Positions 34,860 through 39,123 of a DNA stretch of 64,000 nt are shown one piece after another. A model generated the notes under the pieces. That model did not search any database, was not told the DNA's origin, and worked only from the letters and a program-made list of their open reading frames with translations. Every line of letters starts with the position of its first letter. The stretch's first letter is position 1. The DNA lies in assembly GCA_963707635.1 (NCBI GenBank), contig OY970173.1:1760001-1824000 (forward strand). Direction: 5' to 3'. The stretch is from Candidatus Latescibacterota bacterium. Its GTDB lineage: Bacteria > Krumholzibacteriota > Krumholzibacteriia > WVZY01 > JAKEHA01. A program made the position numbers and the translations under genes.

Positions 34860-35423
34860 ATGATCCGGATTCTGGTCGCATTCTCGACGACATTCGGCAC
34901 GACGGAGAAGTTTGCCCGCGCGGTGGCGGAAGGCGCCGGGATGGTCGAAGGCGCGCGCGTGACCTTGAAGCCCGCCGCGGAAGTCACTGCCGAAGACCTG
35001 CTGGAGAACGACGCGCACATTTTCGGCACGCCCATCCATATGGGCTCGGTCGACTGGCAGATCAAGAAGATGATCGACACAGTCGCGGCGTGGTTGTGGG
35101 GACCGAACCGCCTGGTGGGGAAAGTCGGCGCGGTGTTCACGTCCAGCAGTGGTATTGGCAACGCAGGCTCGGGCGCCGAACTGGCGATGATGGCATTGCT
35201 CGCGCACTTCGCCGAGCAAGGCATGATCCTGGTTCCGCTCCCGAAGAACACGCCGGGATATTTCACCAACGGGCTGCACTGGGGCCCTACCGCGATCACC
35301 GGCGAGCACGAAGGCAAGCCGATCGGAGTTCCCGACGAGCAGCTGCTGGTGGCGCGGCACCACGGGATGAACGTGGCGCGCGTGACTGCCGCGGTCGCCG
35401 GAAAGCCACTGCTCAACCCGTGA
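34860..35423 (+). CDS. WrbA-like flavodoxin / NAD(P)H:quinone oxidoreductase
   Basis: STTFGTTEKFA FMN loop, FGTPIHMG, GKVGAVFTS. GGAGG RBS before the ATG. Confidence 0.85.
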   Translation: MIRILVAFSTTFGTTEKFARAVAEGAGMVEGARVTLKPAAEVTAEDLLENDAHIFGTPIHMGSVDWQIKKMIDTVAAWLWGPNRLVGKVGAVFTSSSGIGNAGSGAELAMMALLAHFAEQGMILVPLPKNTPGYFTNGLHWGPTAITGEHEGKPIGVPDEQLLVARHHGMNVARVTAAVAGKPLLNP

Positions 35424-35444
35424 TCCGGCTGGAGTGAGCCCCCG

Positions 35445-38400
35445 ATGACCACCCGCAACGTGAGGCCGTTCGTCCACCTGCGGGTGCTCTCGTCGTACAG
35501 CCTGGGACTCGGCCTCTCCACTCCCTACGAGATCTGCCAGCACGCGCGCCGCGTGGGCTTCGACTCCGTGGCACTCACCGACGTCAGCGGCACGTACGGC
35601 TTCGTCGAGTTCCATCGCGCGGCGCGGGAAGCCGGCATCAAGCCGATCTACGGCGTGCTGGTGTTCCTCGACTGGCGCAACCCGCCCGAGCGCGACGACA
35701 CCCCCCACTGGCTCACACTCCTCGCGCTGGACCGTGCCGGCCTTCGCCACGTGAGCGCGGCGGCGAGCATCTCCGCGATCCGTCGCGAGCGGGGCGACGG
35801 CCTCTTCGTCGCCGACCTGGAGGGAATCACCGACGGCGTGGTGGCGATCGCCGGCGCGGCGCCGCGGCCGGATCACCCCTCGCCGCGCCACCTGTTCGCG
35901 CCGCTGGTCGAGATGTTCCACGACCGCCTCTTCGTCGAGTCGCGGGCCGGCCTGGCCGGCGACCACGCCGCGGCACAGGAACGCGTGCTCGCCGACGCGA
36001 GCGTGCTGGGTGTGTCACCGGTGCTGGTGCAGGATGTCCGCTTCGTGGGTCCCGCCAGGCCCCAGCTGGAAGACCTGCTCGCCAGCGCGGACGATCGCGC
36101 CTTCGAGCACCGCGTGTTCGGCGATGCGCGCACCGGTGGTGCGGGTGCCGACGACGGCATGCGTACCGCCGCGGACATGTCGGAATGGTACGAAAGCAAT
36201 GCCGAGGCGTACTCGAACGCCGCCGTGATCGCGGCGCTGGTGCAGCCGGATCTCCTCGACGCGCTGGAGGAGAACCCCTCTGCTGCACCGGCGGGGTCGC
36301 TGGCCCCGGCGCCGGACGCACGCATCACGCTGCGCATGCGTGTGGACGCGGCCTTCGCGCGCGCGGCTGCCGAGATGGACGTGCCCGGCCGCGCGGCGCT
36401 ACGGGGCATTCTGGACCGGGAGCTGGACGCGCTCGCGCGCACCGGCCTGGAGTCCGCCTTCCTCAAGTTCGAAGCGATCGCGCGCCGCGCGCGCGACGCC
36501 GGCATCGCGCTGGGACCCGCGAGCGGCCTCGCGTTCCAGTCGAAGTGCGCGTACCTGCTCGGCCTCACCTCCTTCGATCCCTACGCGGTGGACGAAGGGT
36601 TCCACCCCGCCTTCGTCGACGCGGTCGGCGACGGGTGCGTGCTCGACGTGCAAGTCGCACCCGACGACCGCCCCCGGCTGCTCGCGGTATTGAACCGTGC
36701 CTTCGACGACGCGAGTGTGGGGTACGTGCCCACCGTGGAGCACATCACCGCCGCGCGGGCGCTTCGGATCGTGGCGAAGCGGCTCGGCGTCTCCGCGTCC
36801 GAGTACGAAGACGCCGCGCGAGTGGCGTCGCGCCACCAGGGCGTGTCGCTGCGCGAACTGGCCGAAGAGAACCGCACCATCGGAATCATGTACCGCCAGA
36901 GCGCCGCGTTTCGCGAGCTGGTCTCGCACGCGGCGTCAATTGAAGGATTGCCGTTCGGGTTCGCGCGCACCAAGCGCACGCTGGTGGTATCGCCGCGCCC
37001 GCTGCGCGATTTCCTCGGCTATACCGTGAGCCCCGACACCGGCGAGCACTTCGTGCAATCGACGCGCGACTCGTTTCCGACCGGCGCGGTGAGCCGCATC
37101 GACGTGTCGACTCTGCATGCGCTGGCGGTCCTGGGGAGCAGCGCCGCGGGGTGGGACGGCGACAGGACCCGCGGGAGTGGCTACGAGCTGATCGAAGCCG
37201 ACGACCTCGACGGGATCTACCTGCTCGAGGGAGCGCCTCGGCGGCTCGCGCGCGCCTTCGGAATCCAGGCATTCGACGATCTCGTGCTGTTCGTCGCCCT
37301 CATGCGGGATCGCACCAGCAGCCTGTCGCTGGGGGATCGACTGGTCGCATTTCGCGGCGAGCCCCTGACCACGCCCGCAGAGGCGACCGTTGGGAACGTC
37401 CTGGCAACGACGAACGGGTGGCTTCTGTTCAAAGACCAGGTGCGGGATGTGGTCGCGCGGCTCACCGGTCTTGCCAGCGATGAAGCCGCGCGCCTCGCGC
37501 ACCGGTTTCGGGATCATTCGCCGGGGAACCTCGCTGCGCTGCGGCGCGAGTTCCTTTCGCTCACCGTGGAGCAGTCGGTTTCGTTCGAGGACGCGACGGC
37601 ATGGTTCGGCCGCCTGGTGCGATACGCGCCGCAGGTGATGGATCGCCAGCGCGTCATCGCGGAGTGCCTGATCACCGACCGATGCCTGGCCATGAAAGCA
37701 GCGCACCCGCTTGAGTTCATGGCCCGGGTGCTCGACCACGCCGCCGACGAGGAACGGCGGGCGCGCTACCGCGAAGCCCTCGAGCGGGGCCGGCGGTGGC
37801 TGCCTCCCGACCTGCGCAAGAGTGGCCGCGGGTTCCGGGTGGAGGGGAAGGGGATCCGGGCGCCACTGTGGACGATCGACGGAGTCACCCGCGACGTGTC
37901 GGATCGGATCCTCCGGGCGCGTGGACTAGCCGGTATCTCGGCTCCAGATGAGTTGTTGATACAAACGGTTAGAGAGTATGGAGTAAGTAACACTTCAATC
38001 GAAGCGCTGGTGGCGGCCGGCGTGGTTCGGTCCGGCACCGGCCTCGAGGTCACACCCGAACCGGCGACCCGGGGCGCCAGCCACGGGGGGACGGCGCCGG
38101 CGCAGCTCGGAATGTCGCTCGAGGCGGAACCGGAGCCGGCCGCTTTGGCGCCCGCCCACAAAGAAGGAAACTCCGGCCAGGCGTTCCGCGTACTCCCCAC
38201 AGTGCTGGAGTTCTATCCCCACCCGAATGCGACCCCGGTGGAGCTTGTGGGTCGCATCCGGAATCTCCGCGAGTTCAGGTCCGCCGCTGGCAAGCCGATC
38301 GGCTTCTTCGAGCTGTTCGACGCCAGCGGATCGGTGCGGGTGTTCGCACCCTGGGACCACGTCGTTCGAGCGGGTGAACCGCTCCGCGACGGGAGTCGCG

Positions 38401-38531
38401 CGGTCGTGCGAGGGAAAGTGCGGCTGCGCGACGGCAGGAAGGTGTGCGACGCGCTCGAAGTCGTGCCGACCGAAGAAGGGATGGGACATGGAGAAGCTTC
38501 CCCTGACAACCCGGCAACGGGAGATTCTTGA
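35445..38531 (+). CDS. DNA polymerase III alpha (DnaE) homolog with degenerate active site
   Basis: PHP start FVHLRV.S.YS...ALTD...GIKPIYG, YLLGLTSFDP, SIEGLP, C-terminal OB fold. The PDxDxD and GRGS motifs are not conserved. Confidence 0.85.
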   Translation: MTTRNVRPFVHLRVLSSYSLGLGLSTPYEICQHARRVGFDSVALTDVSGTYGFVEFHRAAREAGIKPIYGVLVFLDWRNPPERDDTPHWLTLLALDRAGLRHVSAAASISAIRRERGDGLFVADLEGITDGVVAIAGAAPRPDHPSPRHLFAPLVEMFHDRLFVESRAGLAGDHAAAQERVLADASVLGVSPVLVQDVRFVGPARPQLEDLLASADDRAFEHRVFGDARTGGAGADDGMRTAADMSEWYESNAEAYSNAAVIAALVQPDLLDALEENPSAAPAGSLAPAPDARITLRMRVDAAFARAAAEMDVPGRAALRGILDRELDALARTGLESAFLKFEAIARRARDAGIALGPASGLAFQSKCAYLLGLTSFDPYAVDEGFHPAFVDAVGDGCVLDVQVAPDDRPRLLAVLNRAFDDASVGYVPTVEHITAARALRIVAKRLGVSASEYEDAARVASRHQGVSLRELAEENRTIGIMYRQSAAFRELVSHAASIEGLPFGFARTKRTLVVSPRPLRDFLGYTVSPDTGEHFVQSTRDSFPTGAVSRIDVSTLHALAVLGSSAAGWDGDRTRGSGYELIEADDLDGIYLLEGAPRRLARAFGIQAFDDLVLFVALMRDRTSSLSLGDRLVAFRGEPLTTPAEATVGNVLATTNGWLLFKDQVRDVVARLTGLASDEAARLAHRFRDHSPGNLAALRREFLSLTVEQSVSFEDATAWFGRLVRYAPQVMDRQRVIAECLITDRCLAMKAAHPLEFMARVLDHAADEERRARYREALERGRRWLPPDLRKSGRGFRVEGKGIRAPLWTIDGVTRDVSDRILRARGLAGISAPDELLIQTVREYGVSNTSIEALVAAGVVRSGTGLEVTPEPATRGASHGGTAPAQLGMSLEAEPEPAALAPAHKEGNSGQAFRVLPTVLEFYPHPNATPVELVGRIRNLREFRSAAGKPIGFFELFDASGSVRVFAPWDHVVRAGEPLRDGSRAVVRGKVRLRDGRKVCDALEVVPTEEGMGHGEASPDNPATGDS

Positions 38532-39123
38532 GTACATGGGTTCGTTCACGCGCGAGGCGGGCTATCCGCCGACGGTGCGCGAAATCTGCAGCGCCACCGG
38601 TCTCCGGTCGCCGCGCTCGGTGAGTCAGCACCTGCAATCGCTCGAGCGCAAGGGCTACATCCAGCGCGGCCGCGACAAATCGAGGGCCATTCGTTTCCTC
38701 GAGCGCCCGGAGTCGCTGGGATCGGCGGGCACGGACGCAGTCGTGTCGCTCTCGGTTCGCGGCCGGGTCCTGGCCGGCCCGGCCACCATCCCCCCCACCG
38801 TCGACGGACCGAGCTACCTGGTCGATCGCGCGCTGTTCGCGGGACCCGATCACTTCCTCATGCGAGTGGAAGGCGATTGCATGGCGGACGCGCACATTCT
38901 GAACGGGGACTACATCGTCGTGAGCCCCGCACCGGAGGTGCACACCGGCGACATCGTCGTGGCCCGCGTGGGGTCGGAAGTCGCGGTCAAATGCTACGAG
39001 TTGCGAGGCGACGGCGCGTTTCTCGTCTCCCAGGGCGGGTGGTTGCCAGTCGATGGACCGGGGCCGCAGGTGGAGATCGTCGGCCGCGTGGTCGGGCTGA
39101 TTCGTCCCGCTTCCCCCGCATAA
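38488..39123 (+). CDS. lexA: LexA-like repressor with catalytic Ser replaced by Cys
   Basis: LTTRQREIL...GYPPTVREI...HLQSLERKGYI...SRAI; GRVLAG; VEGDCM; GDIVVA; VAVK; IVGRVVG. Confidence 0.85.
   Translation: MEKLPLTTRQREILEYMGSFTREAGYPPTVREICSATGLRSPRSVSQHLQSLERKGYIQRGRDKSRAIRFLERPESLGSAGTDAVVSLSVRGRVLAGPATIPPTVDGPSYLVDRALFAGPDHFLMRVEGDCMADAHILNGDYIVVSPAPEVHTGDIVVARVGSEVAVKCYELRGDGAFLVSQGGWLPVDGPGPQVEIVGRVVGLIRPASPA

Follow-up and report, generated by a model that had tools for sequence, protein, structure and literature searches.

We conclude that a gene lying between two tRNA genes of a Candidatus Latescibacterota bacterium encodes a homologue of the DNA polymerase III alpha subunit that has lost essential residues of its active site, yet is very probably maintained for a non-catalytic role. 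A role in damage tolerance also seems likely, although we state this less firmly. With modest confidence, we favor a model in which this protein, termed DnaE*, is a third paralogue of Pol III alpha that serves damage tolerance without catalysis, by docking on the sliding clamp and primer-template. Its gene resides within a 64,000-nucleotide stretch of genomic DNA (the window) and overlaps a lexA gene whose product, LexA*, carries an altered protease nucleophile. Here DnaE* and LexA* denote the copies at this locus, f1 and g1 the family and genus of this genome, and f2 to f9 the other families of the phylum; G-numbers designate relative genomes and L-numbers contigs.

The initial annotation described three co-oriented genes with a gap of 21 nt and then an overlap of 44 nt. 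The coordinates confirm this arrangement, with all three genes on the plus strand, open and full length (Table 1). The dnaE*-lexA* overlap is approximately 44 nt by alignment in all 19 loci measured, and GC3 at the locus is 0.84/0.83 versus 0.90-0.91 for purA and dnaE1. Synteny comparison places purA and tRNA-Lys 5′ of dnaE* in relatives from f1, f2, f4, f5 and f9, and tRNA-Glu lies 3′ of dnaE* or lexA in f1, f2, f4, f5, f7, f8 and f9. The tRNA-Lys promoter is the sole promoter-like site reported by the scanner between positions 34400 and 39600 (shuffle mean 0.3). The hairpin that follows this tRNA is possibly a terminator or a processing site, and the next element, which falls below the scanner threshold and is identical in L271-L273, is likely an internal promoter for all three protein-coding genes. 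Similarly, tRNA-Glu likely has a promoter of its own, where TTGAC is present in most relatives.

Table 1. Features of the dnaE*-lexA* locus (positions in the window).
Feature	Position	Strand	Evidence or remark
purA, adenylosuccinate synthetase; conserved upstream anchor	33272..34579	+	PF00709 E 6e-167
tRNA-Lys promoter, sigma70-type TTGACA-17-TAGAGT	34600..34628	+	promoter scan
tRNA-Lys(TTT); 3′ side is insertion slot	34643..34718	+	tRNA call
Strong hairpin 3′ of tRNA-Lys	34719..34765	+	-37.7 kcal/mol, z -5.7, 0/200 shuffles equally stable
Candidate internal promoter TTGTTT-18-TATCTT (wrbA-dnaE*-lexA*)	34791..34820	+	read by eye
WrbA-like flavodoxin / NAD(P)H:quinone oxidoreductase	34860..35423	+	PF03358, PF00258 above cut-off
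DnaE*, 1028 aa, catalytically dead C-family polymerase paralogue	35445..38531	+	domain, alignment and fold evidence
Eroded palm motif V399-L-D401-V-Q403	36639..36653	+	E. coli D401-F-D403-V-D405; same in L272, L273
D553, retained third catalytic aspartate (E. coli D555)	37101..37103	+	invariant in alignment A1
Clamp-type peptide Q887-LGMSL, predicted disordered linker	38103..38120	+	aligned with DnaE1 motif
DnaE* OB-fold domain, residues 932-1007	38238..38465	+	PF01336 E 1e-6
LexA*, protease nucleophile Ser to Cys (C131, codon 38878-38880)	38488..39123	+	TIGR00498 153 bits, cut-off 111
tRNA-Glu candidate own promoter TTGACA-17-TAGCTT	39231..39259	+	read by eye
tRNA-Glu(TTC), conserved downstream anchor	39284..39359	+	tRNA call

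Members of the DnaE* group are labeled 'DNA polymerase III subunit alpha' in public records, and the protein encoded here retains the order PHP, palm, thumb, fingers, HhH, clamp peptide and OB (five Pfam domains). Its structure model (pLDDT 78.7) finds its best fold matches in Pol III alpha (Foldseek, TM 0.63-0.67), and its score against TIGR00594, 197 bits, is below the cut-off of 434. There is no C-terminal domain after the OB fold, the protein stopping 21 residues past the OB match; in several other families the OB fold is lost as well, and 20 orthologue rows stop 1-23 residues past the clamp peptide.

Aligned with E. coli alpha, D401 and D405 are replaced by V399 and Q403, and D403 and D555 are kept as D401 and D553, so that the catalytic triad D401/D403/D555 reads V-D-D. 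Further substitutions affect R362 (to S), S364 (to L), R390 (to P), R396 (to V) and R709/R710 (to A/H), all but the first of which we take to be nucleotide-binding residues. The D-D-D triad is kept in none of 43 orthologues, and the routes of loss differ between orders. Proteins from f4, f5, f8 and f9 lose D555 instead, which leaves the group without a common active site. Sequencing error is ruled out, since the changes recur in two independent contigs at nucleotide identities of 86-87%; L272 and L273 share the eroded palm motif. Separately, P0085 is another dead DnaE, with no close relatives among 8000 candidates.

Could DnaE* retain weak or altered catalysis in its palm or PHP domain? Two of the three aspartates are left, f2 proteins carry E-x-E plus D, and f5 proteins keep most of the nine PHP ligands, so the alignments leave room for residual metal binding, which may persist. 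Catalysis itself is nevertheless very unlikely, given that the accessible text of one source (PMC3919608) calls D401, D403 and D555 absolutely conserved throughout the C family, that the group has no shared active site, and that DnaE* of this genome keeps only one of the nine PHP ligands.

The gene is nonetheless under purifying constraint, with dN/dS values of 0.13 and 0.15 in comparisons with two close contigs (95% range 0.10-0.19), far below the value near 1 expected of decay, and of 0.14-0.28 in the 14 closest pairs of relatives. Furthermore, orthologues precede (lexA)-tRNA-Glu in six of the nine families of the phylum, with open frames of 900-1070 residues. These dN/dS values rule out recent decay. 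Slow decay of a duplicate that the two flanking tRNA genes keep in place would account for the long branches, for a dN/dS about twice that of purA and for the repeated loss of the OB fold and of lexA, but the dN/dS and the deep conservation largely refute it, and we find it scarcely credible for genes that have their own promoters and stay full length with no intact triad. Searches for a full-length DnaE* came back empty in f3 (0/41 genomes), f6 (0/12) and f7 (0/10), so much of the phylum can do without it.

What has been preserved is a set of candidate binding surfaces. A clamp-type QLxLF/QLxLxF peptide is present in 39 of the 43 orthologues under a loose pattern, with Q in 93% of the 43, and a near-perfect QL/IS/DLF-like version occurs in f5, f8 and f9. 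The QLGMSL of this genome deviates from QL[S/D]LF and resides in a linker (residues 863-912) with pLDDT below 50; no clear clamp motif is seen in G010, G011 or G088. Basic residues occupy positions 409, 441, 490, 621, 632, 700, 734, 751, 772, 805 and 826 in at least 93% of the 43 orthologues. From these sequence features, we consider it probable that DnaE* binds the beta sliding clamp, and likely DNA as well. The conserved C-terminal tail has another cause, because the lexA overlap encodes the same stretch. Taken together, the low dN/dS, the deep synteny and the retained clamp peptide uphold the original view of a maintained pseudo-polymerase and an altered repressor rather than a decaying cassette.

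DnaE* does not stand in for a missing enzyme or repressor, since a normal DnaE1, DnaE2 and LexA2 are all encoded elsewhere, and imuA, imuB, recA, dinB and dnaN are likewise present in the genome. The earlier statement that imuA, imuB, dinB and recA are not nearby needs one correction, as a complete lexA2-imuA-imuB/dnaE2 cassette lies just 17-28 kb past the end of the window; recA and dinB are located elsewhere in the genome. No imuA or imuB accompanies dnaE* in the loci compared, and a comparison of three recA loci with Rfam gave nothing close to the gathering score. In free trees, DnaE* falls outside the DnaE2 clade, on a separate side of the tree and with long branches. The AU test rejects placing it with the DnaE1 of the phylum itself (p 0.0002) but does not reject a sister relation to DnaE2 (p 0.14).

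The SOS connection of this locus emerges from its relatives. An operator-like palindrome, CTAWAC-N4-GTWTAG, sited between the -35 and -10 elements, was derived from G023 and G025 and then recovered at the same spot in the held-out genome G034. Of 208 genomes, 18 carry it, with 22 sites in total; 9 of these sites head dnaE* and 8 head dinB, and reversed controls gave none. Among box-headed f5 loci with a visible end, lexA lies 3′ of dnaE* in five of six; the box is absent from all nine f2 genomes without an adjacent lexA, and G104 (84% complete) keeps it without one. In all six f7 genomes, the order is box, dinB, a DnaE-like remnant with a clamp peptide, lexA and tRNA-Glu, the homology of the remnant being modest (hhalign 66%, E 6e-5). 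We regard dnaE*-lexA* as the conserved unit, whose likely ancestor is an SOS operon of the order dinB-dnaE-lexA. The short form ATAC-N4-GTATG shows no genome-wide excess in four genomes, and it is informative solely through where it sits within the promoter. Our literature search found no report of a LexA motif for this phylum.

These dinB-containing operons raise the prospect of a mirror-image mutasome with DnaE* as a dedicated subunit, one that would bind DinB directly, with RecA joining through the tail of DinB, and would bring DinB to the clamp in the way that ImuB serves DnaE2. In addition to the f7 arrangement, the same box heads dinB in f6, DinB has intact-looking motifs in 36 of 41 genomes, the sister relation to DnaE2 is permitted by the trees, and PolY-DnaE2-lexA operons appear in the accessible part of a published account (PMC6511836). 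We nevertheless view this subunit role as unlikely: dinB of f1 and f2 is unlinked and box-less and has its own clamp-like peptide, the f6 dinB-lexA slot holds an unrelated small protein, and G025 has DnaE* but just one, lower-scoring Y-family match.

In the present genome, the absence of a recognizable SOS box claimed at the outset holds, as no known SOS box is found at 33000-39600, the lineage's own box is absent too, and the candidate internal promoter has no match. A LexA* regulon was not found (6 exact box sites versus 4 in reversed controls); five f1 genomes have chance-level box counts, and the recA and dinB promoters have no box. LexA* also has no operator in its own promoter, whereas orthologues in f2, f5, f6 and f7 have one. 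The SOS link in this genome is thus inherited history, not a visible feature.

LexA* is the vertically inherited LexA of the lineage, composed of a winged helix with an unchanged DNA-binding recognition helix and an S24 domain. The Ser119 position is Cys131, whereas the Ala-Gly (A96-G97) and the lysine (K168) are kept, giving a Cys131-Lys168 dyad in place of Ser-Lys; the L-x-P-x-N segment is lost. Cysteine occupies the nucleophile position in 14 of 16 f1 proteins. In g1, Ala-Gly and Lys are kept in 11/11 and Cys in 10/11, whereas the other f1 genera have lost Ala-Gly (5/5) and Lys (4/5), a pattern that looks like decay of cleavage. The S119C variant of E. coli LexA reportedly still cleaves. 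A literature search on non-cleavable LexA returned nothing.

An unchanged recognition helix beside a drifting protease would suit a DnaE* that acts with LexA* as a transcription co-regulator, sensing damage in place of RecA-driven cleavage, as would the constant overlap and the presence of lexA* 3′ of dnaE* in 20 of 21 f1 relatives having dnaE*. It is highly improbable that this explains the group, because DnaE* persists without an adjacent lexA in 9 of 12 f2 genomes, many f5 genomes and all f8 and f9 loci read, and was already dead next to an intact LexA in f2, f4 and f5.

The initial annotation had included wrbA in a three-gene DNA-damage/redox module, and this proposal fails for the family: wrbA is found in none of 40 relatives, 13 of which have Cys-LexA, and the slot 3′ of tRNA-Lys holds unrelated genes in G002, G024, G037, G043 and G106. 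As a core component wrbA is ruled out, and it survives solely as a sub-lineage link, being at this place in all four close metagenome contigs that have a close wrbA, down to 81% identity. The protein scores 84 bits against TIGR01755, below the cut-off of 132.5, and homologues named WrbA by their sources occur in several unrelated phyla. By its distribution, wrbA appears to be a late sub-lineage insertion, and Cys-LexA is far older.

A redox-responsive unit of WrbA, DnaE* and Cys-LexA, in which Cys131 works either as a thiol switch or as the catalytic nucleophile in a Cys-Lys autoprotease, would fit this 4/4 linkage, the strong selection on wrbA (dN/dS 0.04-0.12), the retained g1 residues, the reported activity of S119C, and a box-like match in the trxB promoter of this genome. 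However, that match overlaps the -10 element and is kept in only 6 of 16 genus members, with genome-wide counts at chance, and with wrbA missing from every relative surveyed and the protease residues eroding in sister genera, such a unit is quite improbable.

Returning to the clamp-docking model, we propose an ancestral box-dinB-dnaE-lexA operon that its own LexA kept repressed until RecA-stimulated cleavage relieved it. With an active DinB alongside, the C-family member would have lost its enzymatic function and been retained for its binding surfaces. In f1, the box would have been lost and the LexA protease site would have drifted from Ser to Cys, so that DNA damage probably no longer induces dnaE* through LexA*. 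The gene would instead be read from a sigma70 promoter in this family, behind which wrbA may later have inserted as a passenger. DnaE* itself would dock on the beta sliding clamp and primer-template, holding or gating stalled 3′ ends. A bolder synthesis, which we consider doubtful, is a mirror-image mutasome in this phylum under CTAWAC-N4-GTWTAG in which dead Pol III alpha, bound to clamp and DNA, scaffolds an active DinB, rewired in g1 from a Ser-LexA to a natural Cys-Lys, possibly thiol-sensitive LexA with a recruited quinone reductase.

If correct, the clamp-docking model would make DnaE* a natural probe of replicase functions apart from catalysis, and the putative SOS box and the natural Ser-to-Cys LexA offer cheap in vitro tests. 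Judged from listings, the literature searches turned up no description of a DnaE class that is naturally dead. In their accessible parts, two C-family surveys treat the active site as conserved, and one demanded an active site for inclusion; a 900-1070-residue dead replicase from six families would be filtered out by such a demand.

Among known systems, ImuB is described, in the portions seen of two reports (PMC6511836, PMC12926913), as a polymerase homologue that is catalytically dead, has a clamp peptide and is encoded in a LexA-controlled operon. DnaE* shares the dead site, the clamp-type peptide and the LexA-operon setting, with the box in relatives rather than in this genome. It differs in its C-family rather than Y-family fold, in the lack of imuA in the operon, in that the active neighbor, where linked, is DinB, and in coexisting with a separate, true imuA-imuB-dnaE2. 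DnaE* would extend the SOS mutasome logic of a dead Y-family and a live C-family protein to the reverse pairing. Like DnaE2/DnaE2B of PolY-DnaE2(-lexA) operons, as far as the same partial sources describe them (PMC6511836; PMC12926913), DnaE* is non-replicative, has an eroded PHP site, lacks a C-terminal domain and belongs to an SOS operon type that also holds a Y-family polymerase and lexA, and a common origin is not rejected. Unlike those proteins, described there as active polymerases, it has lost the triad, retains a clamp-type peptide inside the chain and occupies its own side of the tree. DnaE1/Pol III alpha (2hnh, 7pu7, 2hpi) matches it in domain order, fold and clamp peptide position, but not in the catalytic set, the PHP ligands or the region after OB. 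LexA* resembles S24-family LexA in its domains, its TIGR00498 score and its retained Ala-Gly and Lys, and departs from it in the nucleophile, the L-x-P-x-N segment and the missing operator. Finally, the flavodoxin of the locus has the fold of a WrbA-type NAD(P)H:quinone oxidoreductase and, its score below the equivalog cut-off aside, is ordinary.

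Re-examination of the locus recovered the three genes between tRNA-Lys and tRNA-Glu, the 21-nt gap and the 44-nt overlap as first described. A profile search of the middle gene, dnaE*, finds 5 of 5 DnaE Pfam domains in a product that scores 197 bits against TIGR00594, below the cut-off of 434. LexA*, encoded by the third gene, is above the TIGR00498 cut-off; it carries Cys131 in place of the Ser nucleophile and retains Lys168 and Ala96-Gly97.

Features with coordinates
Feature	Sequence	Position	Similar loci
dnaE*, C-family polymerase paralogue (1028 aa)	window	35445-38531 (+)	
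lexA*	window	38488-39123 (+)	
Ser/Thr kinase-TPR gene	window	39518-42379	
Gene pair with internal repeats	window	44235-47818	
Box match at trxB promoter	G000:C1 (source genome)	724907-724934	
lexA2-imuA-imuB ... dnaE2 cassette (L001)	G000:C1	1841000-1851700	
recA leader (L066)	G000:C1	about 2417300-2417500	L079, L068, L077, L080, L057
DnaE-like remnant, family f7	L127 (genome G040)	6751-8121	L263-L267
Cys-rich ORF, family f6	L126 (genome G039)	1872-2543	L256-L262

The polymerase site of DnaE* is heavily altered. Residues R362, S364, R390, R396, R709 and R710 of E. coli alpha, which we take to be its nucleotide-binding residues, are all substituted, and only one of nine PHP ligands is left. Alignment places V399 at alpha D401 and Q at D405, with D403 and D555 retained as D401 and D553; absolute conservation of the three catalytic aspartates is stated in the available part of PMC3919608. 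The complete triad occurs in 0 of 43 aligned orthologues longer than 890 aa (five active DnaE1/DnaE2 rows excluded), and its route of loss varies between orders. Residual catalysis in DnaE*, in which two of the aspartates survive, strikes us as a faint prospect. The predicted fold is preserved: an AlphaFold model built with 21 sequences has a pLDDT of 78.7, and its matches among Pol III alpha structures reach TM scores of 0.63-0.67. Separately, orthologues in family f5 (L107-L122) retain most of the nine PHP ligands although their polymerase site is erased, and a metal site may survive there.

The source genome, one contig of 3.2 Mb and 96% complete, encodes an intact DnaE1 (1315 bits) and a DnaE2 above its cut-off elsewhere, and so DnaE* is a third copy. 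Between 17 and 28 kb beyond the window's end lie a second lexA, lexA2, and genes resembling imuA and imuB; recA, dinB and dnaN are also present, with the beta clamp encoded at 450501-451604 of the genome. The promoters of both lexA2 and dnaE2 carry an AGAC-N4-GTCT palindrome, a candidate LexA2 box; methyltransferase, MarR-like and DEAD helicase genes interrupt this cassette. The recA leader contains a conserved hairpin whose GGCTGG or GGCCGG loop is complementary to CCAGCC or CCGGCC ahead of the ribosome site, both sides co-varying between genomes. An Rfam search gave no match and single-sequence scores were mostly no better than shuffles; the leader is a possible pseudoknot RNA upstream of a box-less recA.

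The initial annotation had proposed that dnaE* and lexA* are maintained, and comparative data bear this out. By the Nei-Gojobori method, dnaE* has dN/dS values of 0.13 and 0.15 (95% range 0.10-0.19) against two metagenome contigs of 86-87% nucleotide identity, both of which carry identical dead motifs; lexA* gives 0.17 and 0.30, wrbA 0.04 and 0.06, and purA 0.07. Values for dnaE* are 0.14-0.28 in the 14 closest relative pairs and 0.28-0.41 in more distant pairs with the source genome, where dS is near 1. The order purA, tRNA-Lys, dnaE*, lexA*, tRNA-Glu is repeated among relatives. Of the 22 genomes of the source family, f1, 21 have an orthologous match, as do 12 of the 13 in family f2; the two genomes without one are 80% and 84% complete. 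Dead orthologues are also found in f4 (5 of 7 shown), f8 (1 of 1) and f9 (all 8 by score, of which 4 were read). In f5, 19 of 43 checked genomes have an orthologue, all of dead type; 12 were read whole and lie before tRNA-Glu, and 7 rest on profile score. The feature is real and larger than the window alone reveals, and we give almost no credence to dnaE* being a decaying duplicate. A broader profile detected no full-length copy in f3 (0 of 41, sampled from 91), f6 (0 of 12) or f7 (0 of 10); weaker second hits in G036 and G039, the only two read, are active DnaE2 types.

When 1.84 billion representative sequences were searched with a profile, 19 members of the f1/f2 clade scored high and the matches then fell to ordinary DnaE; the triad is present in 127 of the best 150. 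In trees the dead rows fall on one side of a branch, with SH-aLRT support of 100 (39 rows), 99 (24 rows) and 94 (19 rows, mixture model); long branches may have aided this grouping, which is backed independently by synteny. In AU tests, placement with DnaE1 of the phylum was rejected (p 0.0002), placement with DnaE2B was only just rejected (p 0.04) and placement with DnaE2 was not rejected (p 0.14). Another dead DnaE, P0085 (1180 aa, with a clamp-type peptide), clusters with the dead set and has no close relatives that we found.

What DnaE* has kept is informative. Basic residues of the thumb, fingers and HhH are retained across the alignment and, on our assumption from Pol III structures that such residues bind DNA, would contact DNA. 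A Q-led hydrophobic peptide occupies the site of the DnaE1 internal clamp motif, and a loose clamp-type pattern fits 39 of the 43 rows; the miss in G034 is an offset artefact, the peptide being present in the alignment, and G010, G011 and G088 lack a clear peptide. Versions in f5, f8 and f9 are near QL[S/D]LF, the consensus given in the accessible text of PMC3919608, and QLGMSL of the source genome is less canonical. In 20 rows the OB domain is lost and the C-terminus lies 1-23 residues past the peptide, which suggests that the tail is kept for this clamp-type peptide. We favor, with slightly better than even confidence, the reading that DnaE* is a putative clamp- and primer-binding, non-catalytic accessory derived from a dinB-dnaE-lexA SOS operon.

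The SOS part of this reading comes from relatives. Between -35 and -10, YATAC-N4-GTATG is common to the dnaE* promoters of G023 and G025, two genomes whose LexA* is intact, and the held-out G034 promoter has it at the matching position. CTATAC-N4-GTATAG occupies the same place before dnaE* in G076 (f5) and before the dinB-lexA operon in G039 (f6); partial boxes occur in G094 and G108, and a half-site in f4. A promoter-anchored pattern found 22 sites (3 known before the scan) in 18 of 208 genomes and no reversed-control matches, counts that are not statistics because kin genomes are not independent. These sites head dnaE* (9), dinB (8), a 291-aa ORF (4) and one other gene, and LexA probably binds them. 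Among box-headed f5 loci with a visible end, lexA follows dnaE* in 5 of 6, the exception being G104; three loci are cut at contig ends. By eye, no box was seen in 9 of 9 f2 genomes lacking an adjacent lexA. In all six f7 genomes read, a CCAAAC-N4-GTTT box precedes dinB, a DnaE-like remnant, lexA and tRNA-Glu; the remnant is ~460 aa and ends in a clamp-type peptide, and its homology is modest (hhalign 66%, E 6e-5). DnaE* might instead be a dedicated DinB subunit, a reading that we consider unlikely but place ahead of the other rivals.

Two f6 observations stand apart. The 291-aa ORF, which belongs to no known family, lies behind a perfect box in four genomes (L177-L180: G050, G039, G051, G052) and is a candidate new SOS gene. 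The dinB-lexA slot holds a conserved ORF of ~200 aa that is rich in Cys (C-P-G-C...H...C) and has no match to the DnaE* profile; most copies bear a QxxLF/QxLPF-like peptide at the N-terminus, and the product may be a different clamp-type accessory.

In the source family the regulatory link has faded. The recognition helix of LexA* is identical in 16 of 16 sequences and Ser is replaced by Cys in 14 of 16; the source genus keeps both Ala-Gly and Lys (11 of 11), and other f1 genera have lost Ala-Gly (5 of 5) and Lys (4 of 5). No box was found in the 14 f1 upstream regions read, with a decayed trace at most in G019 and G022. The absence of a recognisable SOS box at the locus, noted at the outset, holds: the window's sole one-mismatch match to CTAWAC-N4-GTWTAG lies inside purA, below chance. 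Box and promoter searches found no LexA* target in the source genome; given this and the f1 box loss, we regard the SOS link as inherited history. The gene lexA* lies directly 3' of dnaE* in 20 of 21 f1 genomes and 3 of 12 f2 genomes, and in each of the 19 loci measured the alignment gives an overlap of ~44 nt; that DnaE* acts as a LexA co-regulator nevertheless seems very improbable to us. Elsewhere, a LexA* box match overlaps the trxB -10 element, and AAAC-N4-GTATA recurs there in 6 of 16 genus members and in no other genera. An f2 contig (L048, G029:C393) carries a lexA* of f1-like type that lacks the Ala-Gly loop and adjoins a second tRNA-Glu(TTC); the contig is possibly mis-binned.

The proposal that wrbA completes a three-gene module found little support: a search with the window's wrbA found it in none of 40 relatives, and the slot 3' of tRNA-Lys holds different genes in other genomes. 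Its product resembles WrbA and is otherwise unremarkable, and named homologues come from several phyla. In all 4 metagenome contigs that carry a close wrbA, the gene follows tRNA-Lys; three of them extend to dnaE*, one at 81% identity. A conserved promoter-like stretch precedes the gene, which is a stable insertion of this sub-lineage and younger than the LexA* Cys; a wrbA-DnaE*-Cys-LexA redox module is improbable. On the other side, directly 3' of tRNA-Glu, the kinase-TPR gene has low GC3 (0.66) and is probably an insertion; several f5 genomes have akin kinase genes near dnaE*. Further downstream, a gene pair repeats a 'DGAGGAIVTW'-like unit many times internally and shares a C-terminal domain.

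A literature search, in which subscription papers were mostly uncovered, returned no report of a naturally dead DnaE class or of a LexA motif for this phylum. In their available portions, PMC3919608 demanded an intact active-site region for inclusion and PMC12926913 removed strongly diverged sequences ahead of tree building. Those portions, with the corresponding ones of PMC6511836 and PMC10020695, make no mention that we found of a dead DnaE class; the dead sites that they report are in the Y family, the X family and PHP domains. Set beside such systems, DnaE* varies the SOS accessory-polymerase theme, in that the dead partner belongs to the C family.
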